A stretch of DNA of 54,929 nucleotides, filler included, from Bipalium vagum (Eukaryota): the NCBI GenBank assembly GCA_037834085.1. It is 3 parts of 3 records of this genome, joined end to end, with 100 filler letters (N's around TTAATTAATTAA, not from the genome) between each part and the next. Parts side by side here need not be neighbours in the genome. Positions count along the whole stretch, not along the records: positions 16,587 to 37,080 come from JBBMKC010252096.1; 2 more parts are not named here. One strand, written 5' to 3'. The notes beneath the pieces are model-generated. The model made no database searches, was not told the DNA's origin, and worked only from the letters and a program-made list of their open reading frames with translations. The translations under genes and the position numbers were made by a program. Within the stretch, counting starts at the first letter, position 1. Every line of letters starts with the position of its first letter. This document shows positions 4,385 to 31,882 of the stretch, piece by piece.

Positions 4385-4406
4385 TTTATATAGCATTCTT
4401 TCAGTT
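4385..4406 (+). promoter_or_regulatory. Candidate TATA-like element and TCAGTT initiator for the lectin gene
   Basis: tttatata at ~4385 and tcagtt at 4401-4406, 30-50 nt upstream of the ATG. Spacing is shorter than canonical and the background is AT-rich. Confidence 0.25.
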
Positions 4407-4436
4407 GAGATTATACGTCTACATTTTGGTCTTGTC

Positions 4437-5024: not shown

Positions 5025-5227
5025 GGCTCGCTTTTTCATTAAAAAAAAACTTTATTTCAATAAACTTTGATTAATTTTATTTATTTTTATATAACAAAAA
5101 TAATAATATTTGTATTACATGTGAGTTCTCATCGCTAAAAAGGCTAAAAACGTATTTGTTCTCCTGACGATGAGCTACTGTTACTTAGCGTAAAGACGAG
5201 TGAAGGTACAATGACATCCAGTGGGTC

Positions 5228-8200: not shown

Positions 8201-11200
8201 CTGCTGATCTGTGAGGCTGTGCGTTATCATGAAGGAACAACACCGTTTTCTTCAACATTTGTGGCTGCTTCAATTTAATCTCTTCATTCAAACGGGTCAA
8301 AATCCACTATAATATTCTCCATTAATTGTTTTTCCTTTATCAAGATAATCGGCTTGAATTACACCGTGCGCATTCCAAAAAATGACAACCATGGCCTTTC
8401 CAGCAGATGCAATAGTCTTCGACTTTTTCGGAGCTGGTTTGCCTGATTTTATCCACTGCTTTGATTGATTTTTAGATTCAGGCGTGTAGTGGTGAATCCA
8501 AGTTTCATCAACAGTGATAAAACCACAAAGACATTCATTTGAATTGTCTTGGAATAAAGCCAAACCTTGGTCCGAACTTCGCATACCCCACGCTTTTCTT
8601 CAACTGTGAGCAAGCGCGGCATCCATCTCGCAGACAGTTTTCTCATTTCCAAATCTTTATGCATAATTGAAAATGTTGATCCAACTGATATGCGAACAGC
8701 CTAGGCTATCTCGCGCACTTTGATTCGTCGATCATTAAGAACAATATGGAGAATCCTTTGAATAATTTCCGATGTTTTCATTTCATTTGCAAGACCAGAC
8801 TGTGTGGAATCATATGTGCTTGTACGGCCACAACGAAATTCTGTTAACCATTTATGGATCAACCCGATTTACGGTTAGGAGTCACCATAATATTTAATGA
8901 GTCGTAAATTTGTTTCGCTGATTGTTTTACCTCTCAAAAATAATGTTTCAGGACTCAAAATTCGCGATTTTCCATTTTCATATTGATAATTGTTATAGAC
9001 ATCTTTGAAATGTGATATAATTAAAACGATTTTATTTATTTATCTGAAATTTCGGATTTCACATTTTTAATGTCTAAATTGTTTATTTAAAAAGTTTAAA
9101 AATCTTTGTGCTAAATTTTTTTTTATTTTTCATGGACTTATTGAACCGCCCTTGTATTTTATTGATATCTTTTCTGATCTTATATTGGTTGGCAAGAAGG
9201 TAATAAATAATTTTACATAACGACATTTAACTTCAATTCAACTGTATTTTAAATAAAATACTCATTGTTTAAATAATATTAAGATATTGTGGACAAATTC
9301 AAATGTCAATCAATAAGTTGATTTCATATATTTTTTGTTTCGTTTTTTTAATTTTCAATTTTAGTAAGAAATAACGGAGCAGGCATTTGAGGTAAATTTC
9401 ACTTTTCTATTATTGGAAAGGAAAAAATGCATCATAACCTCTCGAAAAATATGTGAAGTGCATAGTGATGATTCATTAAAGTTTAATGATTATAAAAGAA
9501 TGATAATGTTGGGATTAGTTTGAGAAATTTAAAAGGGAAAATAAAATAACTGAAAAATAAGCAATGATCAAGCCATCCAGTAGATGTCAATGAAAACAAA
9601 ATAAAAGGTTTAATCAAACTGGATTATCATAGACAACATGTGACATTGAAAGGAAGCTCAGTGCATTAAATGCAATATGCAAAAGGCATATTAAGCATAT
9701 GGGTTGCGCTTTACTCTGTGGTACAATTTAAAAAATTATGTTTGTATGTAATCATTACATAATCGTAAAATAAACATTAATAAATTAAAAACAACGAATA
9801 TTTAATCTACCAATATTTATTTTATAAAATGGGATAACATTCCCGTATATATCGCAGCAACTCTTCAAAGTCATCGACACCATTTAAGCGCCATTCCCGT
9901 CTGGCGAGATATTGCATAAAGTGGCCTCAAATGCCTCTTCATCCGGCTGTCGTTTCCGAAACCAATTCTTAATCGGCGCCTTGATAATAACATAATCCCT
10001 AATATCATTGAACCTTGAACTATATGGAGAAGAAGCAGCAGAGCAATGTAAAGTCATCCGACAAACCGGCAGCTTATATTCCCTCTCTCCTGAAGAAGCG
10101 TGAGGGTGCCAGAAGTAACCTTCCAACATTTGTTCCCGAAAAGCCTGTTCGTCCAGTTCAGACGAACAATGATCAGGGGTGAGACAAGTGACAAATTTTA
10201 AGATGAATTAATCAACTAAGACGAAAATGTCAATTTTTTCATAGATCAGCGGTATTGATAAAAATAAATTGATTGGCTTTTTAAGAGGGATTATGTGGTC
10301 CGAATATCGTTTGTTGTCCATTAAGACAACAAATTTTATTAAAACAAAATAATAAAATTTATATGGTACAATTTATAATTTATAATGTCATCAAAATTTA
10401 TGTGGTACAAAAATTAAATTACATGATGATTATGCAATGGTTTTTAAATTGTACCACAAAGTAAAGCGCAACCAGCATATGAGCTAAGTGGAAAAATTCG
10501 ATTTATGGGTTCCTTACCGATTTAAGAAAAGTCACACTCAAGAAAAATAGCAAATTCTTGAAATGATTGTTAATGATCGGTCAAAAGTGAATTTCCTGCA
10601 ATAACGTTCAGCGGAAAATATCATGGTCCAAGTCAGAGGAATCAGTGCTGAAAAGAAAGTTATGCTACGAGTTTACTGGTAATATCAAGAAATGATATAC
10701 TTTGAAATAATAATGTCAAGCAAACAAAGGGTTGATTCTGATGTCTACATTGATCAACTGACAAAATTGAAATCCAAGTAAAACTCAAAAAAATTTCAAA
10801 ACCTAAAGCATTGCTTCATATCATGACAATAGAAAACCACGCATTTCTTGGACCAACCAGAAAAGATTTTTGAAGCTTGTTTAGGACGTGGTGTCACGTC
10901 CACCATAGAGTCCAGACCGCACTTCTTACCATTACCATTAGTTTCTCTCTATGAAAAACTTCTTGAATGATAAAACTTTTACTAATGGTGATCACTTCAA
11001 ATACGACTTGTTGCAGTTTGTGCAAATAAAAAACTCAAAAGGTTTTACGAACGAGGAATTTTTATGCTTTCTGGAAGAGGACAGCAGGTCCTTCACGACA
11101 ATGGACAATTACGTTAATTTACAAAATATTGTTTTATGTAGTTCCAAATATTTTGTTTCTTCAAAAAAATTGATTATTACTTTCTTGTCAACCCAATAAT

Positions 11201-13961
11201 AATGAAAATATAATTAATGAAACTGAAATAATAATAAAAATATTATTTTCTATACAGAGCTTTAACCTTATCCATTTCCTTGTGATCGCTTTCAATAGGC
11301 GGCAGAACTTTTGCCCTGTTATAGGGATCTGAAGCTTTTAAAAAGTGGTGGAAACGAAAAGATTATTATTTACTTTTATTCTCGTTATTGTTTTCTTTTT
11401 CAACCAAGTTTAGTTTATTGCACATCTTTCTTTCTTCAACGTCTCTAAAATGAAATAAACGTTAGAGATGTTACCAATTGATTAAATGATCAAAAGTTTC
11501 GATGGAGGTGAAGAGCCAGAGACAAGCGGCGGTCGTAAACGTTTTATCTTTAGTGAATGACCAGAGACGATGATCTAGAGTCTTAGAAAGATTTTTTTTG
11601 GTCTCATAGCAACAATATGCTACCACCTAGTGAATGCACATGTACTTAGTTTCAGCTGCACTAATAATTTTCCCGGCAGTAAATGGTCTAACGAAACATT
11701 TTAATCTTCACAATTTATAGGCGTCATAAATAAAAGACATATTTGTTCAAGGAATTTCATCAATCAACGACTTCGGGCAATTTTAGGATACCTTTTACAA
11801 ATTTCCAGCCACACAACCCTAAGTGTTCCTTAGTATTTCTGAATAAATGATCTTTGAAAAGATAAATTAAGACTTGTATGAATATAAGAACTTTAAGTAT
11901 TCAATCTTCAAGATAAACAGGCTTTAAGCAACAAATTTTATTATTCTGAAGCTAGGATGGGGTGTTAGTCTTCCAAAATAGTCGACGGAATCTGTACTAT
12001 TGTCAACCCGTGACTTGTTGAGGCTATTCCTAATTATCCCTTCCAATGTTGCGGTAAAGAAAGGAAATAGACAAAACATCCTCATTTTTATATTTCTATA
12101 CCGTTTTTGTATACTTCTTTTATTTTCAGAAAATCCTTTGTAGTTGAGTTTAACCACGTTCTCGTTAGAGGCTGCAATGTAACATTCGCCGTCGACAATG
12201 TCTTCGCTACTTCGAATCTTTTTGAAGTCCTTCGTGTAAAGTCTGAATGGAAAATAGAAACAAAACAGAATTAAAACATAGACAATCTCAAAATGACAGA
12301 TTATTATTATGAAAGCAAATTTATTATTTTTAATATACTGGTGTGAAAATTTTTTGACAACAGTAAAAATGTCAATTTTTCTCAATGTAAAAAATTTTTT
12401 TTCACAAAATATGTCAAATAATGATTTTCAACATTTCTAAATACAAATTTTTATTTTTAGATTTTTATTTCAAAAATTGTATTTTTCAGGAGTGCATAAT
12501 TAATGACAACAGCTAGAAAAAAGATAAAATTGGCTGTCATTGGCAAGCAAATTACAGCCATTCGACCTAGGCGTCAATAGATCTTTTAAAGAGGAAAAAC
12601 CTGTAAAATGGGAAAATTGGTTGGTCAATGAGAATTATAACTTTACGAATTCTGAGTCAATGAAAAGGGTTCCTTACGATAAAATATGAGAATAAATCGA
12701 CGAAAGTTGAAAGGAAGTAACATTAGATTGCATTAAATGGATATAAAGCCGCCAGTATATGCTGATATCCACACGAAATGCAAACAACTGTAATATCTCT
12801 GAAGATGAAGCCGAGTGTGGCATTCCAGATTCTTTATATGTCGTGTTTGATAACTTTAATACGAGATCTGATATGCAATTTGACGGTTTTGATAGTTAGA
12901 TAACTTTGTTTGTTAGGTCCTTTTTATAAATTACAAAATTATGTCGATAGAATTCAGATTGGTTCACAAGTAAAAATGAGTCAATGTGGTTTATAATGAC
13001 TTTTCATCAATGAAAATTTTCCCATTAAATGATTTATTTAGCGAACAAATCAAATGAGAATTGACAGAAGTCAAATACAATGAGTTCAGAGCGTCAGGCA
13101 AAATATCCAATCCAAAAGCTAATAATTGGTTCTCATTGAATAATGATATATGAAGATTTACGTTATTGTGTATTACATAATTCCTGAGATATTTCGAATG
13201 CTTTTCGTATTGGGATGGCGAATAGGTAATTTTGTATTCTTTGTAATGTAATTCGGGTCAAATTTATACTTTAAAAAACAACTTTTTAGCCAGTTGTTTT
13301 TACATTTATTTACATTAATGATATATAATCAATAAAGCATTGTTTAGTTAATCATTTTAAAGGCATTTGTTTGCAAATATTTAAACTACTGGAAGACAAA
13401 ATATTTATTTTCGTCACGTTTTAATTCTCAACTTCAGAAAAGGAAACAATTTTAACAAAGCGCGCAAAGGTACTTGTGACTTCTATGGAAAAAAAGTCGT
13501 GAAAATGCGGCAGTGTCAAAATTTGTATGCCAAATTTCGTTACGGAAATTTTTCTCTGAATGGCGAACCACGTTCTGGATACCTATTGGACGTTTCTGAC
13601 GACCAAATCAGAGAAATTATTGAATGTGATCGTCATATTACAACTAACTATGTAGCTGAAATATATTCCTTGTATTTATATTATATTCCTACCTTCTGAT
13701 GGGTCGATTGTTTAGCAGGAGGACCTTTTCTTCGATCGTCTTCATTACCATTTCCAGGCAGTTCATGTTCCTGTAACTGATCACAACTTTCGCTGCACGG
13801 GAATGTTGGTCCCCGTTTCTAAGAACACTGAAAAAACAAAAAATTCAGTCAAATTTATTAATAAAAGGAACATTATATTCATACTAAACAATGTAATTGT
13901 TCTTAAAAACCGCCAGGTTTTCTGATGTTTTTGGCTCAGAACTTTCTTTACTTTTTTGTCT
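5228..13961 (-). CDS. Doublecortin (DCX)-domain protein with two C-terminal IQ calmodulin-binding motifs; multi-exon
   Basis: Phase-consistent GT-AG exons 13961-13885, 13827-13693 (VLRNGDQHSRAAKVVI...RPIRR), 12242-12102 (LYTKDFKKIRSSEDIVDGECYIAAS), 12029-?, 11444-11374, 11334-11267, 5540-5477 (AATVIQVAFREYRRRK), 5431-5289 (AACTIQRAYRNWKWQK), 5236-5228 (KE*). Start exon and the 11450-11930 junctions are unresolved; linking across the 5.7-kb intron rests on phase and orientation. Confidence 0.75.
5815..7036 (-). mobile_element. Mariner transposon, full-length but decayed (cecropia/Hsmar1-like TIR)
   Basis: TIRs tattagggtgggtcaaaagtaatttcg / cgaaaatacttaagactcaccataata; transposase fragments PRFGRP, QQDNVRPH, HPAYCPDLAS..YHLF. 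Confidence 0.9.
7227..7520 (-). mobile_element. Tc1-like transposon 3' remnant
   Basis: TA-CAGT terminus at ~7226; C-terminal transposase-like peptide SILKRKF...LWKAVKDEWYKISQNLCKKMVIS. Confidence 0.55.
7740..7900 (+). mobile_element. Mariner transposase fragment
   Basis: Reads YIISENEKWISYDNHKRKK, matching the mariner ITGDEKWIxYDNxKRK motif. Confidence 0.55.
7935..9156 (-). mobile_element. Mariner transposon, irritans/Himar1-like, decayed
   Basis: WMPRLLT, ITVDETWIHHYTPESK, SAGKAMVVIFWNAHG, HPPYSPNFSPSDYFLF; 5' TIR (rc tacaagggcggttcaataagtcc) at ~9133-9156. The other TIR was not found. Confidence 0.9.
9183..11197 (+). mobile_element. Mariner transposon, decayed, interrupted by a Merlin insertion
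   Basis: TIRs tattggttggcaagaaggtaat / attactttcttgtcaacccaata; motifs LWVPY, HDNRKPH, PP*SPD, MKNFLNDKTF. Confidence 0.85.
9702..10473 (-). mobile_element. Merlin (IS1016-like) DNA transposon, internally deleted
   Basis: ~29-bp TIRs GGTTGCGCTTTACTCTGTGGTACAATTTA / TAAATTGTACCACAAAGTAAAGCGCAACC; exact 8-bp TSD AGCATATG (9694-9701, 10474-10481); frameshifted C-terminus YLARREWRLNGVDDFEELLRYIRECYPIL resembling Merlin transposases. Confidence 0.85.
12490..12900 (+). mobile_element. pogo-family transposase remnant
   Basis: KLQPFDLGVNRSFK...WENWLVNENYNFTNSESMKRVPY...S*KEVT matches the pogo LQPLDxxVNxxFK C-terminal region. Confidence 0.75.
13208..13660 (+). mobile_element. Mariner 5' fragment (TIR plus HTH region)
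   Basis: TIR-like tattgggatggcgaataggtaat; FRHVLILNFRKG...KFRYGNFSLNGEPRSG...IECDRHITT. Truncated just before a DCX exon on the opposite strand. Confidence 0.8.
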
Positions 13962-15254
13962 CTAAGGAAAATTGTAAAAATAAAATTTTTATTAGTAATA
14001 TCGATTTGAATACAAATATAAGCCGGATGAATTTTCGATTTATATAATTAATAAAAGATTTTTGAAAAATATTTATTGAAATCATCACAAAAGAAATCAT
14101 TTTTCTTTTTATTATTCTTTTCAGTCATTTTCTTTCTCATTCTTAGGATTTAAAAGTTTATTACATCAAAATTTGATTTTAATTGAAATCAATTGTTTTA
14201 TTATTATACATGGTGGTCATCCGAAAACCGGGAAATTTCAAAAAAATTAATTATTGTCATTATACATTCAATTTTATTATTTATCATTTCATAATTATTG
14301 ATTTTTTTAAATAGCTAATTTGATGATAGAAGGAAAACAATTATCAGATTTTGAGAGACAAGTAATAATTCTGTTTTAGACGGAAAATTCTACATGGGGA
14401 TTTACAAAATGTTCGAAGGTGTTACCTGATTTTTTTGGATAGGTTACCAAACAACAATTTGATAATGCCGTTGCATGTTTTAAAGCAAATCCATTACAAA
14501 TTACCCGGAAAAAAAGTATTAATGAAAAAATTTTATTAATTTTTATTGATTAAATTTTGGGCAATGTTTTTTTTATCTTTTGCAATATTGTAAGTCAACT
14601 TATATACATTGGGTGATGAGCAGGTCATTTTTGACACACTACATAAATTAAACTTTTGTTATTTAGTATTTTACACAATAATTTAATATGTGCAACCAGT
14701 TCGATGAAATTATAAAATTAGCGAATGGAGATTCAATAGTGGTACTCAACAATGTGATAAGAGAACATTAAAAATATTTTGATAAGAAATACTGGACCTT
14801 AGTAATAGCAGATAGTAATAGACAAATCATCACAATATACACTGATAAGGCAAGAGTATATTGTGACTTAAACTAAACATGTAAACATAAATTGGGTTGT
14901 CATAAATATCAGTTTGTTGATTATGACTGCAATATCCACACCGAGATCAAAGAAAGCTGAAAGCTATACACGGAGCATATAATCACCACAGGTGTGATTT
15001 TCTTCAAGAAGTCATATGGTTACAGTACCATAATGACTTTGAAGAAACGATGAACCTCTTAATAAAAATATAATTGCTGGTTGTCAATTTTATCCTTCTT
15101 ATTATTATTGACATTTGTTTTTTATTGTAGGTCAAAAAAACAACATAGGTAATTTTGTAGGTCAGAAAAAAACATTGTCCAATTTTTTAAAACTTAATAT
15201 ATCGATTAACATTTTAAAATTAGTATCAAAACTGTTACAATTATACTTAGACGT

Positions 15255-16093
15255 AGTAACGTGTGCTCGTGTACTCGTGACCCCTCACTCTTTAAATCGT
15301 TGTGTCCGTAACTCCTCTTTAAACCTCATCCAAATCAAAACACCCACGATATTACTGTATCTGCTTCCTAAGAACTGAACCAAAACTTCTACAAAAAAAC
15401 TTTATTTGAACAAAACACAATCACACTAGAAAATAATGATCACAACGACATTCCACTTCTTCAGATCACTCTTTAATCAATGAATCCAATAAATAAAAAT
15501 GTCACCAAGAATAATGATAAAAATAAAAATAAATAAATATTATTACTGTTTTAATAAAAGAAAAGAAAGAAATTATCACAAAAGAGAGAGTCGAGAGTTT
15601 AAAAAAATAAAACGCTCTCACCCAGAGTGACAAGGGGTTCCGGGTTGCCCTATAGGTCCTTCTCAGGTCCCAACCTCGCTGGGTCCCCTTGTAGAATCCT
15701 CCTGCGAAGTCATATCGACTTAAATACCTTGAGGTCCTGTCTTCGACTCGTAGTCGTTCCCTTGAATTGTCGTTTCCCGTTGTATTGTCTAGCGTTTTCC
15801 GTTTTCTTTTTTTGTCTTTTCTGTTGAGCGCTGAGCCATTAACGGGAATAGCCGTCTCTTTATAAAAACGTAGAGATTGGTCTACGATCACCATTCCCTA
15901 CGCTTAGAGACGGCTATTTTCCCTAATAGCCATCAACTGTATCTCCACGCCAAGATAAACTCATATCAAGGCCAATGGAATCCTGTCAGGGAATCCATTA
16001 GCCTAATCTGCCGAAAATCCCAAAAGCGAAATTCCAAACCAAACAAAATTTCTAATTAATTTTTTTTATTAAAAAAATTTAAGAGTTCACAAC
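15255..16093. mobile_element. Possible solo LTR / LTR-like non-coding repeat
   Basis: GC-richer non-coding block with gtaac...cacaaca ends, TATA-like and polyA-like signals and a strong internal hairpin; no TSD found. Confidence 0.3.
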
Positions 16094-16486
16094 AATTTGA
16101 GTACCAATAGTTAAAAAATTGAAAAATTTTGAAATTTGAAAAAATTGAAAAAGTGAAAAAAAAAGTTAAAGTATTAAAAATTTAAAATTCAAAAAAAGGA
16201 TACGATTTAAAAATTTTTAAATTGAAGAAATACAAAAAACGAATTAATGCGAATTTTATTGTTTTTTGTTTTGCTTGTTTATTTTGATTGGTCATTTTAA
16301 CACTACTTAAGACTATTATTATTTATCAATCTTGAATAATCTTTGTTTTTAAGAAAATCTATTTTTGTCATTCGTTTCAAGAATTTTTTTCCGATTAATT
16401 GTATAAAGTATCTTTTTTGACTGAGTCGCTTAAAAAAACATGATCCAAAAATTTTTCTTTTAATAAAGCATTGTATTTAAATATTA

Positions 16487-16586
16487 NNNNNNNNNNNNNN
16501 NNNNNNNNNNNNNNNNNNNNNNNNNNNNNNTTAATTAATTAANNNNNNNNNNNNNNNNNNNNNNNNNNNNNNNNNNNNNNNNNNNN
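16487..16586. other. Artificial contig-join linker (N44-TTAATTAATTAA-N44)
   Basis: Exactly 100 bp; palindromic core gives stops in all six frames; identical structure at 37081. Confidence 0.95.
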
Positions 16587-16662
16587 TTTTCCGCTTTACC
16601 TCTTTGTCTTCGCAACTGTTCATGATAAGCTCCTTCATTAATTGTTCTTTTTCCCATTTGTG

Positions 16663-17054
16663 CATGAAGAAATTCTTCCATTAACTCCAATATTTGGAGC
16701 AATATTTGCAGGCTTAGGAGCAGCAGGTGAAGTTGCAGAAGGAATTGCAACAACTGTTAGAAAACAAAAGAAGCATCAAAAAATAAAGCAAAGAAAGAAA
16801 AGCTTGAATTGGAAAAACTGAAATTAGAAATGGAAGTAGAGCAATTTAAACCTAAGGAGGAACAAAAATCTGGAGCTGGACTTTACTTCTATCCATATTT
16901 TGGAAAAGGATTAAAAGATGCAATTTTAAATAGTTCAGAATATAAAATACAGAAATCTGAAAGGAAAGATTTAAAGGAATTATTACAAAATTTATGTAAA
17001 AATAAAATTAAAATAATTAAACAAGGATCTGGACTATTTTTTGACCCTTACTAG
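16663..17054 (+). pseudogene. Polinton core/membrane protein with adenovirus pX-like motif and GxGL(Y/F)xxPY repeats (copy A)
   Basis: EILPLTPIFGAIFAGLGAAGEVAEGIATTV, coiled-coil, then SGAGLYFYPYFGKGL and QGSGLFFDPY; frameshifted. Confidence 0.65.
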
Positions 17055-17539
17055 AAAAGTAAATAAACACACCGACGGTGCTAGAGCCGAAGGCTTGTTT
17101 TCCCAACTCAAAATTTCCAAACAATATTTTTTACCCAACTTAAATTTTTTTCCCAATTCAAAATTTTCCCAATAATATTTTTTTCGCAAACTCAAAATGT
17201 AATTTAAAAATTGATGTTCTTATGTTTTTGTGGTTTTTATCATGATAGATTTTTGGATTAATATGTAGCTGCAGAATTTAATTTATCTTATAGAGAGCTA
17301 ATGAGACTATTAAATTTGAATGAAATAATGATGTATACTGAATATTTAGATGAGGATGAATTATTTATTGAACATGATTAAAAAACGTAAACGAAAAAAA
17401 TCCAAATATTTAAAATTTTCTTTTAAAAATGCAAGACACGCCCACTAAAAGTGTTAGGACCGTAGGCCCGCTTTTGAAACCAAAGGTTTCGTCGCGATAT
17501 AAGATTGTAAGAACAAATACATTACTAGTTTTTACGTAA

Positions 17540-17893
17540 ATATGGAATTAATTCAACATCAAATTTTGATTTAATAGATATTGCAGAAGATTTAGAAATT
17601 CCCTTAAAGTTTTAATGCTGGATGAACTAACTAAAAATATAATAAAATCTGAATTTCCATTAATTATTATCTATCAAAATAAAAATCAAAAAGGAATTCA
17701 TTGGGTTGGATATTACAAAAATTTTTACCTTGAATCTTATGGTTTATCACCACTTAAAGATTTAGTAAAACATGTTAAAGAATATAATAAATTTGATTTT
17801 CAATCTGAAACAGATTTAGAGGACTGTGAAAAATTATCTTTATATGTTTTATATCAAATTTTTCAGGGAAAAATTTTAAGGAAAATGAAGTAA
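17540..17893 (+). pseudogene. Adenain-like (adenovirus-type) cysteine protease (copy A)
   Basis: SNFDL..IAEDLEIP, GIHWVGYY (His), ESYGL, FQS (Gln), DCEKLSLYVL (Cys); N-terminal frameshift. Confidence 0.8.
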
Positions 17894-18002
17894 AACTTCA
17901 TGAGAGCTTCGCTCGCATTTTAGAAGAGTTGGAAAGTTATATTTGAAAAGTTAAAACTAAAACTAAAAATTAAAAATTAAAAATTAATAATTAAATTAAA
18001 AA

Positions 18003-18275
18003 ATGCCAGATGTTTCAGGAGATAAAAATTTTTTAATATTGCTGGAAATGGAGAATATATTTATACCAAAGCTCTAAATCATTATGATAAAGATGGAGAT
18101 GAAGAAAATGAACTAAAAAAGTAAATTTTATTAGAAATGAAAGTGAAAATAAATTTTTAAATGTTACTGGAGATTCTAAGAAAGGAATTTTAAATATGAA
18201 TAATAATAAAATAATAAATATTCCGAATCCTACTGAAGATAAGGATGTTGTAAATAAACAATATATAAATAATAA
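18003..18275 (+). pseudogene. Fiber/spike-like protein N-terminus (copy A)
   Basis: FLNVTGDSKKGILNMNNNKIINIPNPTEDKDVVNKQYI resembles the GDxMxGxLxM..KI..P....DA.NK.YV repeat of tail-fiber/trimeric adhesin proteins. Confidence 0.55.
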
Positions 18276-19380
18276 TGTGGAAAATATCCTTTTGAACCCT
18301 TGAAACCAAATGTATTAGGAAAATCTTTTAATGGGAATAAAGTAAAATTTATAGAATCAATAAATCTTATATTAAAATGTTTAATTTTCATAATAGTAAT
18401 TTTACTATCAGAACTCAATTTTTCAACTGGCAACTTATTTTTCATTGATCAATCTAATATTGGATGATTATATTGTTTGAAATCCTCACTAATTAAAACT
18501 TTACAGAAGGTATCAATAGAGTTTTAATTTCCAATTGTAACATCTTTTAAAAATTCAATATTATTTTGAATATTTTCAATTGTTAAATTTTCTAATTCTA
18601 CTTTAATTTTAAAATATAAAATTGTGTTTGTTTGTATTTTAAAATATATTTTTCTTTCAGTATCATAAGCTATTGCATAATTCATTTTATGATAACCTGC
18701 ATTTTCTTGAGTAGATTCAAAATCAAAAAATAAATATTTATTACTTTGTTTAAAATTTCCTTCATTATTTTTCATATAACATTTATGTTGATTAAAAGGT
18801 GGTTCATAGTCTTCATTACAAATTGGAAAATTTTTACAACCACATTTATGATCAGATCTATTATAATATTCTTGTTTACAATCTTCACAAATTTTTGAAT
18901 TTCTATAAGTTGTAACACTATCTACTTTGCATTTATGTTAATTTTGAAATCCTAGTGACATTTTTTTTGTGATTGTAAAAAAGCTGATATTTTCGCAATT
19001 GAAATAAAGTGATGATTTTCTTGATCATAAAATATAAAAGTTTGTTTTTCAAAATTTTCATTACCTCTATATAAAATAGAATTATTATTATTATGATGAT
19101 AAACTATAATTCTTAAATTTAAATAATTTTCAAATAATTTTAAATCATCAATATTATTACCATTTTCTTTAATTTCTACTTGTGCCATATTACATAACCT
19201 TTTAGCCCATTCTTCTTGAATTTTATCTCCTCTTCTAATATATCTAATTCTATTATCTTTTTCTTCAAAGTTTAAATAATTTTTATTTGTGAAATTATCA
19301 TGTTAAAGAAGTTACTATTGACCTGGCCAAACAAAGTGAATCATTATTTTGAATTATATTAATTTATTTTTAAAAATTCA
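18270..19380 (-). pseudogene. Protein-primed family B DNA polymerase, N-terminal and exonuclease fragment
   Basis: NNDSLCLARSIV, Cys-rich CEDC..HKCG..HKCYM, Exo I YLFFDFESTQ, IRFIDSINF..PLKDFPNTFG..KGYFPH; many stops and deletions. Confidence 0.85.
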
Positions 19381-20739
19381 AAAGTTGAATCTCAACGAAC
19401 AGACTTTGTTACCAAAAACGGTCAGAACTTTCTTTAAAACCTAGTAATGATATTTTTCAATTATCCATCCTGATCCTTTTACTCTATATATTTCTCTATC
19501 CAACAATTCTTGATAATTAGAAATACCACTGATCATATCATCCTCTTTTATATATCTATTTAAATTTATAATCTGATCAGATTCAATTTTTTTGTAATGA
19601 ATTAATTATCTCTAGTATTATTTATTGTAGCATTAACTATAAATTGATATTTATTTTTTTATTTTATTTAACATGTTTTGTAAATAATTCAATATATTAT
19701 CTTTCTTATTTATTACATATTCTATTATAGTAATATTTGGTGAAGAAATATCATGAAATGTTTTTTCATCTATTTTGAGAAGCATTGTCATTTTCATTCA
19801 CTTAAGTATCATCTTTCATTAAATTTAAGAAAGCTACTAATATTAATATTAGGATAAAAAGATTTCTTAAAAATTTCTATTTTCTTTTAATTCATTATCT
19901 TTTATATAAAGATGAAAAATAGAATTTCATAAACTCTTATATTTCTTAAATAAATTCTTAATTTAATATTACCACTGTTTTTTCTACATTTACATGAATA
20001 TTTTTCTTCAGAATTATAATCAAAGTAAAATCTTGTAGGTGAATCTTGTTGTTTAATCATCCTCTATCATAAAAATATTATATCCATTCTTTTATAACTT
20101 TAGATATGTTTTCTGTAAAGGTCTTCCATCAAGTATAAAATAATTCTTATAAGTATTATACCAACTGAAAACATGATAATTATTTGTTGTTCCAAAATTT
20201 ACAGTATTATTGTTTGTGTAGTCATTTTATCTGCAGCTAATATTATTGTAAATTTACCTTTTAATAATAAAGTTTTTTCTCTAATGAAATACCCGAACTT
20301 TGATATATTGATTTCTAAGTTTTTAGAATTTATAAAATCTATTGATGAAGATTTCCAATTAGAATACAAACTATTAGTGTAATTTTTTCACACATGTTTT
20401 TAAAATCATCAACTACAAAAATAATTTTTAATTTACTTTTAATATTATTTTTTAATTTATAAGGGTCTTCATTTTCTTTTTTTACTTTTATGATTACATT
20501 TTCAACAATTTTAAAATTTTTATATTTGAATCTTTAAATTCACTTTGCCAATGTTTGTTGGAACAAATGATATAAAATATTTGTTAAATTTATAATATTT
20601 TAATTCGTTTCATTTCTATTTCTTTCAAATTTTTGGACCTTCTTTAGAATTATATTGTGAAATTTCTATTTCAATTTTTTCTATTTTTTTTCTTCATATG
20701 ATTTTAATTGACTTTTAATATTCTATTTATACTAATTTC

Positions 20740-20861
20740 ATTTAATAAATATTTTCTAACTTTACAACGTTATTATCATTTATTGGATCTGCTACATTTA
20801 TTATTTTATTATTATTCATATTTACAATTCCTTTCATAGCATCTCCAGTGAAATTTAGAAA
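20740..20861 (-). pseudogene. Fiber/spike-like fragment (copy B)
   Basis: FLNFTGDAMKGIVNMNNNKIINVADPINDNNVV, homologous to 18155-18270. Confidence 0.55.
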
Positions 20862-21110
20862 TTACTCTTTTACATGTTTTTCTAAATCTTCAAGTGGTGG
20901 TAAACCATAAGAATCAAAATAGTATCCACTGTAATAACCAACCCAATGTATTCCTTTTTTATTTGTATTTTGATAATTAATAATCAATGGTATTTCAGAT
21001 TCGATATGTTTTTCTTTTAACTCATCTTTCATAAAAAATTTTAAAGGCATTTCTAAATCTTCATCCATGTGTATTAAATCAAAATTGAAATTTTATTAAT
21101 ACCATATTTA
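20862..21110 (-). pseudogene. Adenain-like protease (copy B, catalytic-Cys region deleted)
   Basis: IPLIINYQNTNKKGIHWVGYYSGYYFDSYGLPP; joined directly to the fiber-like fragment. Confidence 0.8.
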
Positions 21111-21158
21111 TAAAGGAAATCAAGTATAGTCATTTTAAATAAATAAATATTTAATCTT

Positions 21159-21570
21159 TTATATAAGAATCGAAGTAAAGTCCCATCCCTTTCTTATTTG
21201 ATTTTTAGATATCTTTTGTAATAACTCTTTTAATTCTTTTCTTCCTGATTTATTAAAATTTTTATATTCTAAACTATTTAAAATTGAATCTCTTAACCAT
21301 TTTCCAAAATAAGGGTCATAATACAATCCTGCACCAGATGTTAGTTCTTTTGGTAAACCTTTGGTGTTGAGAGCTCGCTTGATTTTAGTTTCTCTATTTC
21401 TAATTCTAATTTCTTTTTCTCTAAATCTGTTTTTTGTGCTTCTTTTGCTTTCTGTACTGCAGTTGCAACACCACATACAACTCCCCCAGCTGCACCTAAT
21501 CCTGCAACTATTGCACCTAAAATTTGTTTTAATGGTAATACATCACCTTGTGTCTCATCTTCAATTATAT
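21159..21570 (-). pseudogene. pX-like/GxGL protein (copy B)
   Basis: QGDVLPLKQILGAIVAGLGAAGGVVCGVATAVQKAKE...SGAGLYYDPYFGK; frameshifted. Confidence 0.65.
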
Positions 21571-22109
21571 TTTTAATTTTATTAATTATCGTTTTACTTA
21601 TATATTTTTTCTCACCATTTAATTTTATTACTTTTGGTATACCAACATAAATTATTTTTATATTTTTTCTCGAGTAATTTCACTTTTACTGTCATGAGCT
21701 TTGCTAGTTTCATCCATTTTTATAATAACAAATTTATAAATTTTGTTAAACTAATAACCCAACAGAAATACATAATAAAGTATATTTATATAAAAGATAC
21801 TAAATTAGAAAACAATATTATGTTCTGCTATTGGATAGAGCTGTGAACGGCGTACACCACTGTCTCCAATCATAGACAGATTATTTTAGCATGACCATTT
21901 TCCCTTTTATAAATCAATAGATTTTAATATACATTTCATGAACAAACTTCCGCATCTTTGGAAATTTCCAATAATTCATCTTCATCCAAAGTTTTATTTG
22001 GTGAAGACATTTCTACATCTTCGGTAATATTTTGAAGTAGTAGATTTTCGTAATTTTGAGATAATTTTAGAAAATTTTGATTTTCTATAATAAAATAAAA
22101 TAAAAATTT

Positions 22110-22420
22110 ATATTTTTATAAAATTCCTCTTAAATTTTGCATATTCTTTATCCACTCATAGTTTTTTAAGAATACGTTGATACTCTTCAAATATTTTTTC
22201 AAACGCATTTGTGATTGAGATTCCAGTTTTATCTTTTAATTGAATTGCAAAAGCAAACTTTGTATATAAATCTATAACCGTTAGAATTATTTTATATTGC
22301 TTTCTCCTGGTACAATTGTTAAATCTGCACTCCAATACATTTTTATTAAAAACTTTAACTTTCAATACAATTTTAGATCTAAATTCTTTATATAATTCTT
22401 TGGCTAATTGTACTCTTTTC
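22110..22420 (-). pseudogene. Polinton retroviral-like (rve) integrase fragment
   Basis: LAKELYKEFR, WSADL (shifted frame), YKIILTVIDLYTKFAFAIQLKDKTGISITNAFEKIF. Confidence 0.85.
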
Positions 22421-22519
22421 CTGGAGGAAGTCCTTTGGAATTTTTATATAGTTTTTCTTTTGCTAAATTCTATGCATTCTCTGGCTACCGAGCCTTTAGC
22501 TCTAGTACCTTTGGTATGT

Positions 22520-22980
22520 CTTGTCTAAACAATACCTTACCCTTCATAATTAATTTTACTAAAGCTCTTTCTAATTTTTCTCTTGGAGTAGGATTTTCAA
22601 TATTGTTCATTTCATGTATCATTTCTATGTCTGCAACATAACAATCTTTTGAATCTTTTGACATGTATTTTACATCATGTTTTATTGCTGCTGCATCAAC
22701 TCTGTTTATTGGTATTGAATCTGGTTTAGGAATTGGAGGAATGTATAAACTACCTGTATCATTATAATTATTGATTATTTAATTATAGTTTTCTAATCTT
22801 TTATCAATATTCGAGTAAATATTTATCCAGTAAATTGGTGAACGGAATTTTTATTGTTAAAAGGGTTTAAAGATTTTAGATGTAATTCTCCTGGATATGT
22901 TCCTGTAGTAAATTTATTTAAAAATTTATTATTTGTTATTGCTGATTGAATATCACCACCTCTATGAGATATTGAATATC
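22520..22980 (-). pseudogene. Parvovirus VP1-type phospholipase A2-like domain
   Basis: GELHL...HQFTG...NIDKRL...PINRVDAAAIKHDVKY...ADIEM...REKLERALVKLIMKGK; His-Asp dyad present. Confidence 0.8.
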
Positions 22981-23719
22981 CACCTCGTTTAGGAAAAAGA
23001 CTGGGATATTTTTTATAAATATCTTCACGTAGTGAAGGTAACTTCGTTACATTTTTTATTTTTTCATTATTTCTTCGTTTATTTTTTCATGTTTTCTTGT
23101 ATTTTCATGATGAGATTTTTTTTCTTAGAAATACTTTTATCACAAATTTCATAATACCATTTTTAATCCATTTTTTTATGAGAATTATTGAAGTTTTATT
23201 CAAAAATTTTATTAATTTGTTTTCATAAAATTTCAATATTTCTAATGTTATAGTTTTATGTATATTTTCATATCTTTCTCCCATTTCATTTGATTCAAAA
23301 CAATGGTAATTTAATATCATTAATAAATATTCAGATTCTCATGTCTTTCATTCATATCATCTACACATAGTTTAAAAGTACAGTTACCATGATAAATCTT
23401 TCTGATTGCTTATGAAATCTTTGTTATCTAAAGAATTATTTTTACCACGTAAAAATATTTCATAATATTTATTTTGCTGAAATTTTTTCTGGATTTTATA
23501 ATAGTCTTCATTAGATAGAAATTTAAATTTTTTCTCATTGTAAATATTTCAATATTTTGCCTTACATTTGCGTTCATTTATATAGTAAAATTATATGGTA
23601 AAAGTATTTTGTTATTATGATAATTTGGTATTTTGGTATTTTGATAATGTCGTAATTTGATACTTTTGATATTTCTTCCACAGGGAGAATTCAGGTCATG
23701 TTTCAAACTCTGGTGTTAC

Positions 23720-24700
23720 ATACTACATGTTTCATTCATTTTTTCTAATTAATTCATTCCTTTCATTTCTTCTTCAATAATTTCTTCAGTTTCTTTGTCT
23801 ATTTCTTCGGTTACCTCATGTTCTTCAATTTTTCTTCCACTTCGTTCTCCTCTCCAACTTCTTCAATCATTTCTTCTATTTTTGTTAATAATGCCTCCAT
23901 GTTCAGATGTGTCCTCCTTTTTGCGATTTTTCTTTTCTGTCGTTATATGTAAAACTTTTTCTAGATTGACTAACTCCTCTGCATTAATATCTACTATGTA
24001 TTTGATTTTTAGCTAGTAAAACAAATTATACTCCTTCTTTGTATGAATTCATTACTGAATTTTGTAAAAGAGAATAGTACTGATTTTCTACTCTGGCTAA
24101 CAGATGTAATTATTGTTTCCTTAAAACTTCCTGTATTAGTATCTTTAGTGCAATAATTTTTCCTTGCTGATTTTCCCACTTGATCTCTCTTTTCTATTCT
24201 TCTACTAATAATGTTAGTATAATTTCTTCGGTAAAGTTGCCTCCTGCTATTAACATAATGATTGTATGTCCATACATATTTTCTTCATTTAGTGACCATA
24301 AATAATTATTATTTATTATTCTAAATATTTCCCATGCATGTTCTTCCTTATTTCTCAAGATCACATTGTTTAAAGGAGTATCACCATCCTTATGTTTTAG
24401 AGTGAATATGACTGGTAGTCTCCATGATATCTGGTTAAAATCTTCTTATTTTGTCATGCCAAGTGTAAAGTTATAATCGGATTTTGCTATTTTATATGAT
24501 TTCTTCTTAGGATATTTCGTTGGTTGTCTTGGCAGAATTTTCACATTTATTTCGTTATCCCATTTTGGTAATAACTCATTTTCTAATATATTCTTTTGTT
24601 GATTTAGTGGTTTTCCATAATATGAAATATTTACATTTCATAATGCTGACCATTTATTTTCTGTATTAAGTCCGTTATTCTCATCAAATTAACTATATGT
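23720..24700 (-). pseudogene. Degenerate ORF with ankyrin-like motifs and acidic tail
   Basis: KHKDGDTPLNNVI and NEENMYGHTIIMLIAGG in broken frames, followed by a Glu-rich segment. Confidence 0.25.
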
Positions 24701-25778
24701 TTTGTTTTATACTCTTCTTCCAATATTAACTCTATATTAAGTGGAGTAAAATTTAAAGGTTTGAAATTGTGATTACATGTAGTGGCAGCTTTAAAACCCT
24801 CAAAATATTCAGCCTTTAATAACCTTTGAACCAGTGAACCGATTTTGACAAACTATATATGAAATTGAAGTTAAATACATTTTCTATCATAAAACATATG
24901 AATTTACTGAAATAAAATTTTTTTAAAAATTATTTTTTTCCTAAAAATGACTGAAATAGCTGAAGAAAATTTTAAAAATATTATTGATGTGGGAAAATCG
25001 AAATACATAACTGTTAATGGTAAACAATATTAATTAAGTCATAAAATAAGAAATTAAGGAAAATGATGAATATCGTCTTGCAGACCAACAACTGGTTATC
25101 GATAATGTAATGATATTAAGATATTACATTTCCCAAGGTCATGTTTACATGATTATAATTAGGTACACTCAATCAATTACTATTAATGGGAAAAGGTAGC
25201 AGACGTGGATAATAAATAATTTTGATTGATAAAAATATTGGTTTTATAAAATTAATAATCTTATATCAAATGATTCAAAATTATTATTGAAAAATTTAAC
25301 AGATCATTAATGATATTTATCAGACTTGACAATCATTTTACAATAAAAAAATTATATATTGACTATGATTTGTGTTTAAAACATTTATTTCAACTTTTAG
25401 AAAAAGAAAATACCAAGGACTTGAATTTTATTTTAATTTTTAAGCGGTTAGAATATTTAAAGTCTATATTTTCGTAGGACAGGTTATGTGACATTTGATT
25501 GGGTAGTCATATCTCTTCATTAAAATTTTATATTTTATTATAAAATACTTAATGTAATGTGAATGACCGAAGTTGTTTAAATTTAGGAAAAAATTTCATC
25601 TCTTAAATTTACATCTCATTAAATAGAAAGTTAATTGGTTAAAAATAGCTAATTTTATTCAAATTTGCTTCAAATAAACATTTCAAGAGTTAATAGTCGA
25701 AAACTCAACTATTATTATTATTTTCCCTTTAATTTAAAGTTTAAGAGAGTTAAACATTCTTCCGGTTTTCTAATTTAG

Positions 25779-27383
25779 TTATTTCTTTTGAAGAAAATTA
25801 GATTCCTTGAAATCATATTTTCGCTTCAAACTGCGCTCGATCGAGTTATCCAAAGAATTGTTCATTTCATCTGAAGGTTGTTGTAAAGACTTTGGAGACA
25901 GACAAGTTGGTGTGAATTTCGATAATTCAGCCAGTAATTCACCTTCAAATATTTTGACATAATTATTTGACTGTTTTTTAAATGCATTTTCAAATATATT
26001 TTTTGTTTTACTAAGTAATTTTTCCTTTATAGATGGTTTTGGTGTAATAGATTTTGATTTCAATAAACTTAACTCATTTGCATTACTATTTATTTCATAT
26101 TTATTGTGTTCATGACTTCTGTGACGTTTCCATGCTGTGTTAATTTTAATATTATTTTGACTTTGACCATCCTTTTTTTTTTCACTTTTATTTATGTTTT
26201 CAGCATCCCGCTTGATTTTCGATTTGTATCGCTTGGTTTTTGCTTTTATTTCCTTTCCAAGATTATCAATATTACTGGCATTTATGTTTTGACCAAAACT
26301 TTTCATATTTGTACTAGTAGAATTACTTTCACTACGATGTAGTTTTAAATTTTGATTTTTATTTGACTGAGATGGATTTTTTGATGTTGTTAAATTTATA
26401 TTTCCTTGATGGGCTTGAAACCCATTTGGAGTTAGCCTTCCTTCCAAATAATTTCGACGAACTGAATAATCTGCCAATTCGTTGAAATGATCTGTACGAA
26501 CAAATTTAGGGTCTAATTTGACAAGAATACCAACTAACCTATCATTTTCTTCTTCTAATAAATCCATGTCTAGTCTTGACCAATGAATTTTTCTGAGTAT
26601 TGTATCCTTTTCTAATTGTTGTGAGTCTATTCTTTCTTGAAATTTTTGTTCTAAATTTCGTTGAAGTTCAACTTTATTTTGTAGAAACATTACATTTTCT
26701 ACTAATAAAGTAAGAACACTCTGTGTTCTGGTATAAATATCTTTTAATCTATCTGCTATTTCTCCAGACTTTTTGATTAAATCAAATTCTGGTCTATCAG
26801 TCCAAAAAAAGACACGATCTATTAATCCTACATTTTCTGTAACTAAAGGCATGCAATAATTACAAACCTGGGTTAAAACTAGGACAAAGTGAAGTTGAAG
26901 ATAAAATAAATCTCGATAGAAATCACAAAGTGGTTTTAATTTATTTTTTATTTCTCTTTGAATTTCTTCAATTGCTAGGGCAATATTTTCAAAAAGTGAT
27001 AAATCTTTGGTTTTTAAATCTGTATATGATATTTTTCTTAATGTTGGAGATCGGCATAAGTTCCTTCTAGAAATCCCATCCCCTATTGTTGACATTCCCC
27101 TCACTGATAATTGACCAAGCAGAGTTTCATTGTGGCGAGTTCGGACTTCTAATTTTTGATCTGCATTTGTGAATTCAACTTTTAGATCATCAATTTCTTT
27201 CTCTCCGAGCTTTAATTGAGTTTCTATGAACTCTTTTGTAATAATTCTATTTTGCTCCTCATTAAGTCTCCTATAATCTTCCAAATATTTATAACAAAGT
27301 AAGAATAAATCTTTATTTTGTAAAATAAGTCTTAAATCTCCTTGAATATGAGGTGGATAAACTGGTAATTGGTCTGCATGCAT
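25779..27383 (-). CDS. Hypothetical protein, 534 aa, coiled-coil N-terminal half and Asn/Lys/Ser-rich tail
   Basis: 1.6-kb uninterrupted ATG-started ORF in very AT-rich DNA; heptad-like segments; no family recognised. Confidence 0.75.
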   Translation of the reverse strand: MHADQLPVYPPHIQGDLRLILQNKDLFLLCYKYLEDYRRLNEEQNRIITKEFIETQLKLGEKEIDDLKVEFTNADQKLEVRTRHNETLLGQLSVRGMSTIGDGISRRNLCRSPTLRKISYTDLKTKDLSLFENIALAIEEIQREIKNKLKPLCDFYRDLFYLQLHFVLVLTQVCNYCMPLVTENVGLIDRVFFWTDRPEFDLIKKSGEIADRLKDIYTRTQSVLTLLVENVMFLQNKVELQRNLEQKFQERIDSQQLEKDTILRKIHWSRLDMDLLEEENDRLVGILVKLDPKFVRTDHFNELADYSVRRNYLEGRLTPNGFQAHQGNINLTTSKNPSQSNKNQNLKLHRSESNSTSTNMKSFGQNINASNIDNLGKEIKAKTKRYKSKIKRDAENINKSEKKKDGQSQNNIKINTAWKRHRSHEHNKYEINSNANELSLLKSKSITPKPSIKEKLLSKTKNIFENAFKKQSNNYVKIFEGELLAELSKFTPTCLSPKSLQQPSDEMNNSLDNSIERSLKRKYDFKESNFLQKK

Positions 27384-28095
27384 TTATAATTTTCTATAAT
27401 TATTATTGATCACTTTGTTAAATATTCAATAATTTAACATTTTTAAAATTTGAATTTAATTCTAGAAAATATTTATCATAAACTGTAATTGAAATTATTA
27501 TAGTAGAACAGGTATTATTCTAACATTATCTGAAACTTGTTTATTGCTAACACAGTACTAAAAAAGCTGATTTTTACTAATGTAATTTTATTGCGAATTC
27601 TAAAATCATGTTACAGGGGCAGTGTTAAAATTATTAAGGTTTTAATAGTTAGTACCATTTTAAAAACATTTATGTGCAAATAAATGGAGATTCTTATCTA
27701 CTGTAAAAATCAGTATATTAAAAAATATTACTTTAATTTCTGTAATTATGTTTTAAGCTTATTAATCTATTTAATGACCATATAATATTATGTCAAGAAC
27801 TAAGAGGTAAAAGCTAGCTTTCACAAAAAAAGATTATTGTAAATTAAAAAATTATTATTTTAGATACATAATACAATTTTTAGTATAGTGATTTTGATTT
27901 TGATAATACACATTTTAATAAGGATACTTCAAATGATACGAAAATGATATCTAAACAACTTCCTTTAACAGTAGGAAATTATATTAAATTGAATTGTCCT
28001 GAATTATTTGAATCATGATATTTTGAATTTTATGGAAAAATTGTTTTAGATGATTTTATTAATGCAATAAATAAAAAATAATGATTTATCAAACA

Positions 28096-31319: not shown

Positions 31320-31882
31320 AGCATACAAATGGAGGACCTAAGAGATCTTTTTGTGGTCTTGTGAGGAGCCTCTCGTGTTAGACGAAATTCGGAAAAGGAA
31401 TTGGTCTTTACAGTATTCAAAAGTAACGAGGATGTTGTGTGATTTGTTGAAATGCGAAATCGCTTGTCTCATTCTATACCACCATGTTTTCTTTGATGTT
31501 TTTCGTCTAAAAGTTGGACCCCCTTGATCCATTCAATACAGTCTGAGTCGTTCGTGGAAACATTATAGATGGAGATGATACTACTCATCCCATCATTCGG
31601 TAAATTGAGAAATGCACATTTCTCGGGGCGGTAGTGCATCCCCGACCACTCAGTAGTTGAAAAGGCAGTGTTGATGAGAGCTTGCAGGTCAGATGAATTC
31701 CGAGCCATGATGGCACTGTCATCAGTGTAAGCCAAAACTCTAACTGGTGAATTACCAATCATAAAGCACAGAACAGGAGCAGATGTTATCGATTCAATGA
31801 TCGAATTTATGGCTATTGCAAAGAGCAACATCGAAATTGGACATCCTTGCTTAACACCTTGTCGGATTGGAAGGTTCGGAGT
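31320..31882 (-). mobile_element. Non-LTR retrotransposon reverse-transcriptase fragment (R2/NeSL-like)
   Basis: GVKQGCPISMLLFAIAI, VLAYTDD, GMHYRPEKCAFL. Confidence 0.85.

Follow-up and report, generated by a model that had tools for sequence, protein, structure and literature searches.

Alpha adintoviruses, with an OTU-pfam03175 PolB, were described by Starrett et al. (2021, PMC8502044), and in the parts of that paper considered here they share with the present locus the PolB type, the rve integrase and the adenain-type protease, as well as PLA2 and pX-like domains and a fiber-like gene. Among the entries of its Figure S2 are an element from a Mytilus mussel and a Fiber gene; flatworm names gave 0 matches in the part of the supplement covered, which is weak evidence. 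Polintons are known piRNA targets in the planarian Schmidtea mediterranea (PMC8532177) and Maverick expansions were reported in Dugesia (10.64898/2025.12.11.693146); as described in the considered sections of both sources, these are, like the present locus, abundant repeats of the Maverick class in a flatworm genome rich in AT. Replication modules are exchanged or uncoupled among Polintons: a whole PolB gene was moved in the nematode PolB displacement (Jeong et al. 2023, PMC10748475), and the terminal protein (TP) is separated from the vOTU domain in split TP genes (Krupovic et al. 2024, PMC11161782). Two metagenomic Polintons, L017 and L022, have the one-strand order PLA2-integrase ... pX, protease ... 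(with fiber in L017), which was also found here.

The window is a 54,929-nucleotide stretch of Bipalium vagum DNA (assembly GCA_037834085.1). The 7-kb stretch at 16587 to about 23660 is very probably a patchwork of broken Polinton pieces of the alpha adintovirus type in a flatworm chromosome, formed from an abundant family by two or three likely separate insertions joined by deletions, and is predicted to be inert. Its likely sources were two, and likely three, different virus-like Polinton transposons. The preliminary description had listed motifs for pPolB, rve integrase, adenain-like protease, pX-like protein, fiber-like repeat and PLA2-like domain. All six were confirmed by Pfam, tblastn, profile and PHROG matches within this stretch, each interrupted by stops, frameshifts or truncation, and the Pfam scores of all window fragments were below the Pfam curated cut-offs. 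The several broken Polinton genes and the many related genomic copies identify a decayed Polinton-derived interspersed repeat, and the proposed Polinton/adintovirus origin is supported. The further reading as one endogenous virus did not hold: virion genes are present twice, on opposite strands (pieces A and B), and the stretch joins, head to head, two subfamilies that have diverged from each other, together with a segment of a different PolB type. The doubled virion genes, the gap at the left end and the composite nature of the PolB were not part of the preliminary description. Some 1.9 kb had no assignment. The features were as follows:

16487-16586, no strand: N44, 12-nt spacer and N44, read as a scaffold gap, cutting the left end of piece A
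16642-17054, plus: frameshifted remnant of a pX-like core protein in piece A, sharing 73% identity with the B copy
17537-17893, plus: piece A adenain-type protease remnant, 5' part frameshifted (profile E 3.2e-10)
18004-18275, plus: piece A fiber-like gene start (PF03906 E 0.0025; phrog_2710 E 2.8e-5)
18269-19385, minus: alpha-type (pfam03175) pPolB fragment with vOTU, Cys-rich linker and first part of the exonuclease
19387-19752, minus: terminal-protein-like segment of the other PolB type, GSGW motif at 19459-19476 (E 1e-14)
19753-20745, minus: very repetitive DNA whose reading frames are decayed, no assignment (depth bins 5155-12732)
20746-20863, minus: piece B fiber-like repeat remnant (PHROG tail fiber E 0.008), 80% identical to that of A
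20862-21110, minus: protease remnant of piece B, in which the His and Asp motifs are kept (profile E 1.6e-11)
21159-21720, minus: frameshifted remnant of a pX-like core protein in piece B (profile E 3e-4)
21721-22140, no strand: low-depth segment, no gene assigned (depth 211 in bin 21684-22017)
22141-22443, minus: piece B rve integrase fragment, 3' half absent (Pfam E 0.005; profile E 1.4e-12)
22485-23086, minus: PLA2-like domain of piece B, immediately preceding the integrase (PF08398 E 2e-4)
23087-23660, minus: repeated DNA without assignment, up to the right high-depth border by contig depth (about 23630-23690)
25779-27383, minus: open host gene of 534 codons with DUF5743 (E 6e-81)

Piece A thus holds pX-like, protease and fiber-like remnants on the plus strand, and piece B holds PLA2, integrase, pX-like, protease and fiber-like remnants on the minus strand. 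Self-BLAST of A against B gave three inverted matches of 73-80% identity. The three genes occur in the same order, inverted, as would be expected of a single element whose virion genes had been duplicated internally in inverted orientation. However, the differences by codon position were 39/181, 24/182 and 62/180 (chi-square p 8e-6), and neutral decay following a duplication would strike all codon positions alike; the spacing between pX and protease also differs between A and B. A duplication is therefore largely refuted by the codon-position test and retains hardly any probability. The excess at third positions instead assigns A and B to separate subfamilies, whose divergence, as judged from codon positions, took place under selection and before insertion.

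The pX-like remnant of A reached only E 0.3 by profile alone, but a frameshift-tolerant scan scored it at 24 against a null maximum of 15; the B remnant scored 34 against the same maximum. The pX-like profile was seeded on an ORF of L022 (Adeno_PX E 0.001), and an Atlas search with the pX-like frame gave no usable match. In the A protease, the His motif is at 17693-17710, Glu replaces the Asp motif, and the Gln and Cys motif is at 17798-17827; the B protease ends before the Gln/Cys motif. Two broken copies of an adenain-type maturation protease are present, a label given by motifs and by relatives in Polinton loci; the profile was seeded on ORFs labelled by their H-D-Q-C motifs, with no Pfam label for the seeds. 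The fiber-like gene of A is truncated at its contact with the opposite-strand PolB. In B, the first two acidic integrase motifs (22320-22340 and 22141-22155) lie in different frames, and tblastn matched the truncated fragment to metagenomic Polinton integrases at 2e-9. The HD motif of the PLA2 domain is intact (22674-22697) and its calcium-loop region is interrupted by a stop; no intron-sized insertion was found in this domain, and at the Gly-Pro position there was neither GGNCC nor an insertion. Rfam gave 0 matches at E<=1 in 14000-28000.

PLA2 precedes the integrase in the window, as it does in the PLA2-rve ORFs of loci L003, L006, L017 and L022. In the alpha adintoviruses, as presented in the considered part of PMC8502044, this arrangement differs, and the window also differs from them in having no PLA2X and several elements mixed. 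PLA2X, the PLA2 with C-terminal pX-like fusion of the Mayetiola-class alpha virion module, was not found: PLA2 abuts the integrase and the pX-like remnant is a separate gene 0.8 kb off, an arrangement shared with L017/L022. The gene order of B is that of L017/L022 minus the central 4 kb: in these loci the integrase end and pX are 3.9-4.1 kb apart, and in place of 21721-22140 they have the remaining part of the integrase, a further ORF and the two capsid genes. L017 and L022 retain the ATPase and both capsid genes, unlike the window. Their PolB belongs to another clade or was not placed and precedes the ATPase; the PolB pieces of the window follow fiber.

Hexon, penton and FtsK ATPase were undetected, and the polymerase core and termini are absent, which also separates the window from the alpha adintoviruses as given in the considered part of PMC8502044. 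Profiles built from relatives and applied to the whole window gave best E values of 0.94 for the double jelly-roll major capsid protein (MCP), 0.098 for the single jelly-roll minor capsid protein (mCP), outside the element, and 0.71 for the FtsK/A32-type packaging ATPase. The same search clearly recovered the protease and PLA2-integrase and found pX in B. Frameshift-tolerant scans for capsids and ATPase scored 17-19 against null maxima of 13-17, with controls at 34-56. Held-out natural fragments of 100 aa were recovered in 33/42 cases for MCP, 24/26 for mCP and 30/30 for the ATPase; the capsid profiles were built on 6 and 10 distant sequences, so that a short, heavily decayed remnant could escape them. 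The MCP seeds carry PF21738, and the mCP seeds were named by position, without a Pfam label. The earlier remark that capsid and FtsK ATPase genes were not recognisable was thus borne out with working positive controls. An ATPase remnant before PLA2, with motifs seen by eye and a syntenic C-terminal hint at 23222-23079, was rejected as non-significant (E 3.7, 2 bits). No terminal inverted repeats were found, and the left end of the stretch is the gap. A 6-bp target-site duplication belongs to a complete Polinton or alpha adintovirus.

Contig depth in the stretch was mostly about 100-1000 times that of the flanking DNA, and the stretch is therefore a common repeat. From 18010 rightward, which is the part covered, depth was 2058-29832 in 15/17 bins of 18010-23687 and 30-726 in 13/13 bins beyond, values from one run, probably of the source sample, that do not give a copy number. 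Two of the joints fall in the two bins of lowest depth (211 and 838). High depth across most of B and the failure to find capsid genes would suit a capsid-less, non-autonomous Polinton derivative amplified as a unit by helper elements. This is very improbable, since depth is lowest (211) in the segment that spans the missing capsid block, terminal inverted repeats were not seen, and other contigs continue differently at the breaks of B, namely at 20722 and 20866 where its genes are cut, with 6 contigs at 20866 continuing in sequence unlike the window. A virion maturation and entry module of one virus, as suggested earlier, is likewise not what was found, with capsids, ATPase and polymerase core missing from a highly repeated family.

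The alpha-type PolB fragment was placed by tblastn at 19369-18269 on the minus strand. Its vOTU domain has a Cys motif at 19319-19345 and a His motif at 19006-19020; ExoI is at 18707-18727, and the ExoII motif of the relatives is absent. Among 669 candidates, 79 were homologues at E<=1e-3, and PF03175 was found in 75 of these 79 (best 2e-37). In a 1261-aa Mytilus relative, the fragment aligns with residues 145-517; its identity to Mytilus Polinton proteins is about 40%. It is a pfam03175-type PolB with N-terminal OTU domain, as a fragment only. The alignment stops at residue 517 of 1261, and the polymerase (palm) core was not found. In a quick, unrooted tree, from which 16 near-duplicate rows were excluded by hand, the exonuclease piece fell into a 15-row clade with Mytilus and other bivalve-associated PolBs (SH-aLRT 99). 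The PolB phylogeny proposed as a check thus returned the alpha type and a clade with bivalve Polintons. Horizontal transfer from bivalves is not claimed, given 40% identity, a long branch (0.73) and an unrooted quick tree. Viral contigs gave no relative when searched with the fragment, and one distant locus when searched with an alignment.

The adjoining segment at 19387-19752 matches P0123, P0124, P0127 and P0137; the alpha relatives do not match it at their N-termini. By GSGW and the motifs that follow, it may be of the beta type (beta, group 1 Polinton PolB). A low-confidence model (pLDDT 36) of the GSGW-type matches gave weak fold matches to pPolBs and Y-family polymerases, in line with a putative terminal protein. 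Profile-profile comparison of alpha and GSGW-type N-termini was not significant (E 0.05-0.3); P0137 gave nothing useful against PDB sequences, phages, Pfam and NCBIfam, and viral contigs were not matched by the GSGW-type proteins. Two scans of genome contigs yielded no relative. A word-based search with the segment found 0/72 candidates, which is weak evidence. The neighbouring 19753-20745 had no informative family match, with one low-recognition Atlas match only, at 20202-20387.

The terminal-protein/vOTU joint might be a domain swap between two polymerase types. GSGW-type homology reaches 19387; that of the alpha type begins at 19369, or near 19385 by eye, on the same strand. The Gly of GSGW and the Cys of vOTU are 143 nt apart, against 47 codons (141 nt) in 3/3 relatives. 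The near-register joint is neater than a random fusion usually gives; this counts against the best explanation, as does the similar depth on its two sides. A host Polinton family with a real recombinant PolB, in which the terminal protein of the other class is in frame with an alpha vOTU-exonuclease-polymerase and which spread before decay, would account for the spacing, for a joint at the TP/vOTU boundary, the proposed cleavage site (PMC11161782), and for the similar depth on both sides (414 at 19301 and 394 at 19488), about 15-fold the depth of unique contigs. Polintons are moreover known to swap modules and to have had their whole PolB displaced (PMC10748475 and, in its considered part, PMC8502044), but unlike those cases and the split TP genes (PMC11161782), two PolB types here meet inside a gene, in one decayed copy. 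Such a family is nevertheless unlikely. P0112, the alpha relative closest to the fragment (66% in vOTU), carries an N-terminus of the alpha type that is unmatched in the window, 0/25 matches among 1.84 billion representatives cover both segments, the segments lie in different frames with 25 poorly aligning codons between the profile matches, and the bin of the joint is among the lowest in depth.

Assembly artefacts, with collapsed copies of a very common repeat stitched together beside a scaffold gap, could also produce the joints. The gap at 16487-16586, the 5607 contigs on 10 kb and the joints at about 18275 and 19387, bridged by no contig among the matches listed (8 of 6499 pieces), are compatible with this. 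Against it, 19729-20024, 20385-20546 and 23630-27858 are covered by contigs of single-copy depth showing 0 differences, and parts of the locus therefore exist as written; an artefact is considered decidedly unlikely.

Under the preferred reading, a deletion-joined patchwork of separate insertions, the parents would have been complete Polintons whose linear DNA was copied by a protein-primed PolB, with the terminal protein presumably cleaved off by the vOTU domain (model of PMC11161782) and integration carried out by the rve integrase. They probably formed particles that were matured by the protease. Copies would have inserted in or beside one another, as repeats do, and their remains would then have been fused by deletions; the joint at about 19387 may have been created at this locus by two decayed elements recombining at a weakly homologous position. 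Apart from this one neat PolB-type joint, the stretch is likely an ordinary, inactive relic, because the capsid gene and the polymerase core were not found.

As it stands, the locus adds another decayed copy to a transposon class whose abundance in planarians is already known, and is to be filed as a Polinton-derived relic and not as an adintovirus genome. The suggestion of a lineage undescribed for this host is weakened by the Polintons of S. mediterranea (PMC8532177) and Dugesia (10.64898/2025.12.11.693146), as far as the considered parts of these sources describe them. At the gene level, the remnants point to alpha-type Polintons in a flatworm that are allied to those of bivalves and have a PLA2-integrase layout. 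Should there be, against the odds, a flatworm family with a chimeric replication protein, joining the terminal protein of one class to the alpha-class protease-exonuclease-polymerase at the TP/vOTU boundary, the alpha polymerase could prime on the genome ends of the other class, and the priming domain would be exchangeable between the two Polinton polymerase classes, deeply separated as they are, with the element still spreading. A joint common to many copies would provide a natural test of TP and polymerase as separable, vOTU-cut modules.

The open DUF5743 gene to the right of the stretch marks the host, on the basis of its predicted protein, as a flatworm. This protein is 55-61% identical to the compared proteins of parasitic flatworms, which are 66-86% identical among themselves (tree without outgroup).

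Six-frame translation of the element (about 16587-23660) gave only short and broken reading frames. Fragments matching DNA_pol_B_2, rve, PLA2 and a tail-fibre family in Pfam were found, all below threshold. For comparison, eighty loci from metagenomes and one viral contig were collected, and profiles were made from those loci. The gene layout of the metagenomic reference Polintons L017 and L022 was PolB, ATPase, PLA2-integrase, ORF, minor and major capsid, pX and protease, with Pfam labels obtained in this type of layout for MCP, ATPase, PLA2, rve and pX. In the window the profiles matched a PLA2-integrase (1e-12), two proteases (2e-11 and 3e-10) and pX twice (3e-4 and 0.3). The six Polinton motifs claimed in a preliminary description were borne out by the Pfam fragments, the PolB relatives and the locus-derived profiles. 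Apart from PolB, the remnants lie in two sets, here called pieces A and B:

Piece A, plus strand: pX, protease and fiber remnants
Piece B, minus strand: PLA2, integrase, pX, protease and fiber remnants

Three stretches of piece A are repeated in inverted orientation in piece B at 73-80% identity. Differences between the pieces at codon positions 1, 2 and 3 were 39/181, 24/182 and 62/180 (p 8e-6). This third-position excess is the pattern of divergence under selection, and A and B therefore derive from different subfamilies. The gene order of piece B is that of L017 and L022, except that its integrase lacks the 3' half and a 4-kb capsid block is missing. This order is unlike the layout of the Mytilus-type locus L001 (13-4587), where an integrase without a PLA2 match stands head to head with PolB. 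The fiber gene of piece A and PolB are both truncated where they meet, at about 18275. About 450 bases with a small decayed frame (17054-17530) separate pX and protease in piece A and are lacking in piece B. The PLA2 remnant of piece B shows no insertion of intron size.

No match to the capsid and ATPase profiles was found across the whole window, nor was either found in a frameshift-tolerant scan of 16587-25800. A Pfam scan of read-through frames, a method insensitive on such long queries, agreed. As a sensitivity control, unmutated natural fragments from up to eight held-out proteins per family were searched, and 33/42 (major capsid), 24/26 (minor capsid) and 30/30 (ATPase) were recovered; a capsid or ATPase remnant of 100 codons would therefore usually be detected. 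The earlier remark that capsid and FtsK ATPase genes could not be recognised thus holds. The polymerase core is likewise missing, and because of these three absences the element is classed as a Polinton-derived relic and not an adintovirus genome. Of the earlier reading as one endogenous virus at 16587-23600, the Polinton origin stands; a single element does not fit two inverted, diverged gene sets without capsid, ATPase or polymerase core.

The PolB fragment, read with X in place of two stops, had 79 relatives among 669 candidates, 75 of them carrying PF03175; the best named ones were from Mytilus (about 40% identity). In tblastn with these relatives, 19369-18269 corresponded to residues 145-517 of 1261, comprising the vOTU, the linker and part of the exonuclease. 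A quick tree of 105 rows, leaving out 16 near-duplicate proteins and matches below 150 residues, placed the exonuclease piece on a long branch in a 15-row clade (SH-aLRT 99) with PolBs from Mytilus and other bivalve-associated sources. One Polinton PolB, P0152, bears the label DNA polymerase in the genome bin of a clam symbiont; it clusters with bivalve Polintons and is for that reason likely host DNA in the bin. The close relative P0010 (1603 aa) carries two additional Pfam domains, PF14528 and PF14890, presumably a homing endonuclease and an intein.

Frame 19800-18955 was searched against 1.84 billion representatives. Of 25 hits, 22 were to the vOTU part (best P0112, 67%) and three to the upstream part only. 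The first 155 residues of P0112 had no match in the window, and an N-terminal profile of the pfam03175-type (alpha) PolBs matched only at 19369 and lower positions. The profile built from four GSGW-type proteins matched 19752-19444 (1e-14), and BLAST carried this match on to 19387. The Gly-to-Cys spacing is 143 nt in the window versus 47 codons in 3/3 relatives. Two PolB types thus meet at the boundary between terminal protein (TP) and vOTU, the upstream one (19752-19387) being putatively 'beta'. Local recombination or fusion at this joint is rated above a family-level TP swap between PolB types, which is improbable. A structure model of the GSGW-type protein P0137 was of low confidence (pLDDT 36; 50-67 in the matching part) and had no fold match at E<=0.001. 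Among its short fold matches are three viral proteins, PolB-type or adintoviral; Y-family polymerases, some of them assigned by title, made up 33 of the 47 matches listed. A likeness of this kind between TP and Y-family polymerases is reported by Krupovic et al. (PMC11161782).

Contig depth was taken from one public run (5607 contigs on 18010-28000). Its unique contigs align with 0 differences, so the run is probably that of the source sample. Depth was 2058-29832 in 15/17 bins of 18010-23687 (211 and 838 in the remaining two) and 30-726 in all 13 bins beyond. This depth, which is not a copy number, shows that the element is a common repeat. Its right border, at about 23630-23690, lies near the end first proposed. 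Other contigs diverge from the window at 20722 and 20866, where piece B genes are cut, and the deletions there are therefore likely private to this copy. None bridged 18275 or 19387 among those listed (15/152 joints, 6/1448 loose ends, 8/6499 pieces).

Several complete Polintons would have inserted here, deletions would then have followed, and the resulting locus would be inert. Earlier papers describe a TP-vOTU-EXO-PALM architecture with proposed cleavage (PMC11161782) and displacement of whole PolB (PMC10748475). The alpha and beta classes are set out in PMC8502044, together with PLA2X, ITRs, the swapping of modules and a degraded relic in human DNA, and PLA2 appears in the Polinton maps of PMC3671162. 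For flatworms, Polintons are reported as piRNA targets in Schmidtea (PMC8532177) and a Maverick expansion is reported in Dugesia (bioRxiv 10.64898/2025.12.11.693146), with nothing further on flatworm Polintons in the consulted passages of PMC6431247. Neither a gene-level account of flatworm Polintons nor an intragenic TP swap was found among the listings and abstracts covered, which are a part of the literature.

Short hairpins with a C-GAA-G loop occur at 17088, 17911 and 23046, three in the element against 0.25 expected, and five in the window overall. With a looser loop definition, set post hoc, there were 10 against 2.6 expected, several intergenic. Locus L070 carries four long palindromes with the same loop (854, 1203, 2362 and 6739; 0.65 expected), and the matching peptide repeats within several ORFs of this Polinton. 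The hairpins are possibly a cis signal of the Polinton family.

The window is AT-rich eukaryotic DNA. Scaffold gaps lie at 16487-16586, 37081-37180 (these two being the filler between records) and 40638-40774, two of the three with a 12-nt spacer; the element begins immediately after the first. One open gene lies nearby:

25779-27383: DUF5743 gene, 534 codons, from a Pfam match

It has 27 homologues, and all 20 named ones are from parasitic flatworms. Its protein is 55-61% identical to the compared parasite proteins, which share 66-86% among themselves (tree without outgroup). The gene thus marks the host as a flatworm, likely one that lies outside the sampled parasitic groups. A decayed minus-strand frame at 24012-24850, ankyrin-like by eye, had no match in Pfam, PHROG or NCBIfam; it is moderately repeated (depth 420-726) and likely a separate element. 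Mobile-element remnants at 29537-30441, 31469-31882, 8297-8599 and 48028-48438 comprise helix-turn-helix/transposase-like frames (DUF4817 match at 29537, the rest by eye) and one reverse transcriptase (RVT_1, E 3e-13). Host gene pieces at 4329-5024, 11924-12427 and 32903-33205 resemble C-type lectin, doublecortin and, by a weak match, MT-A70.
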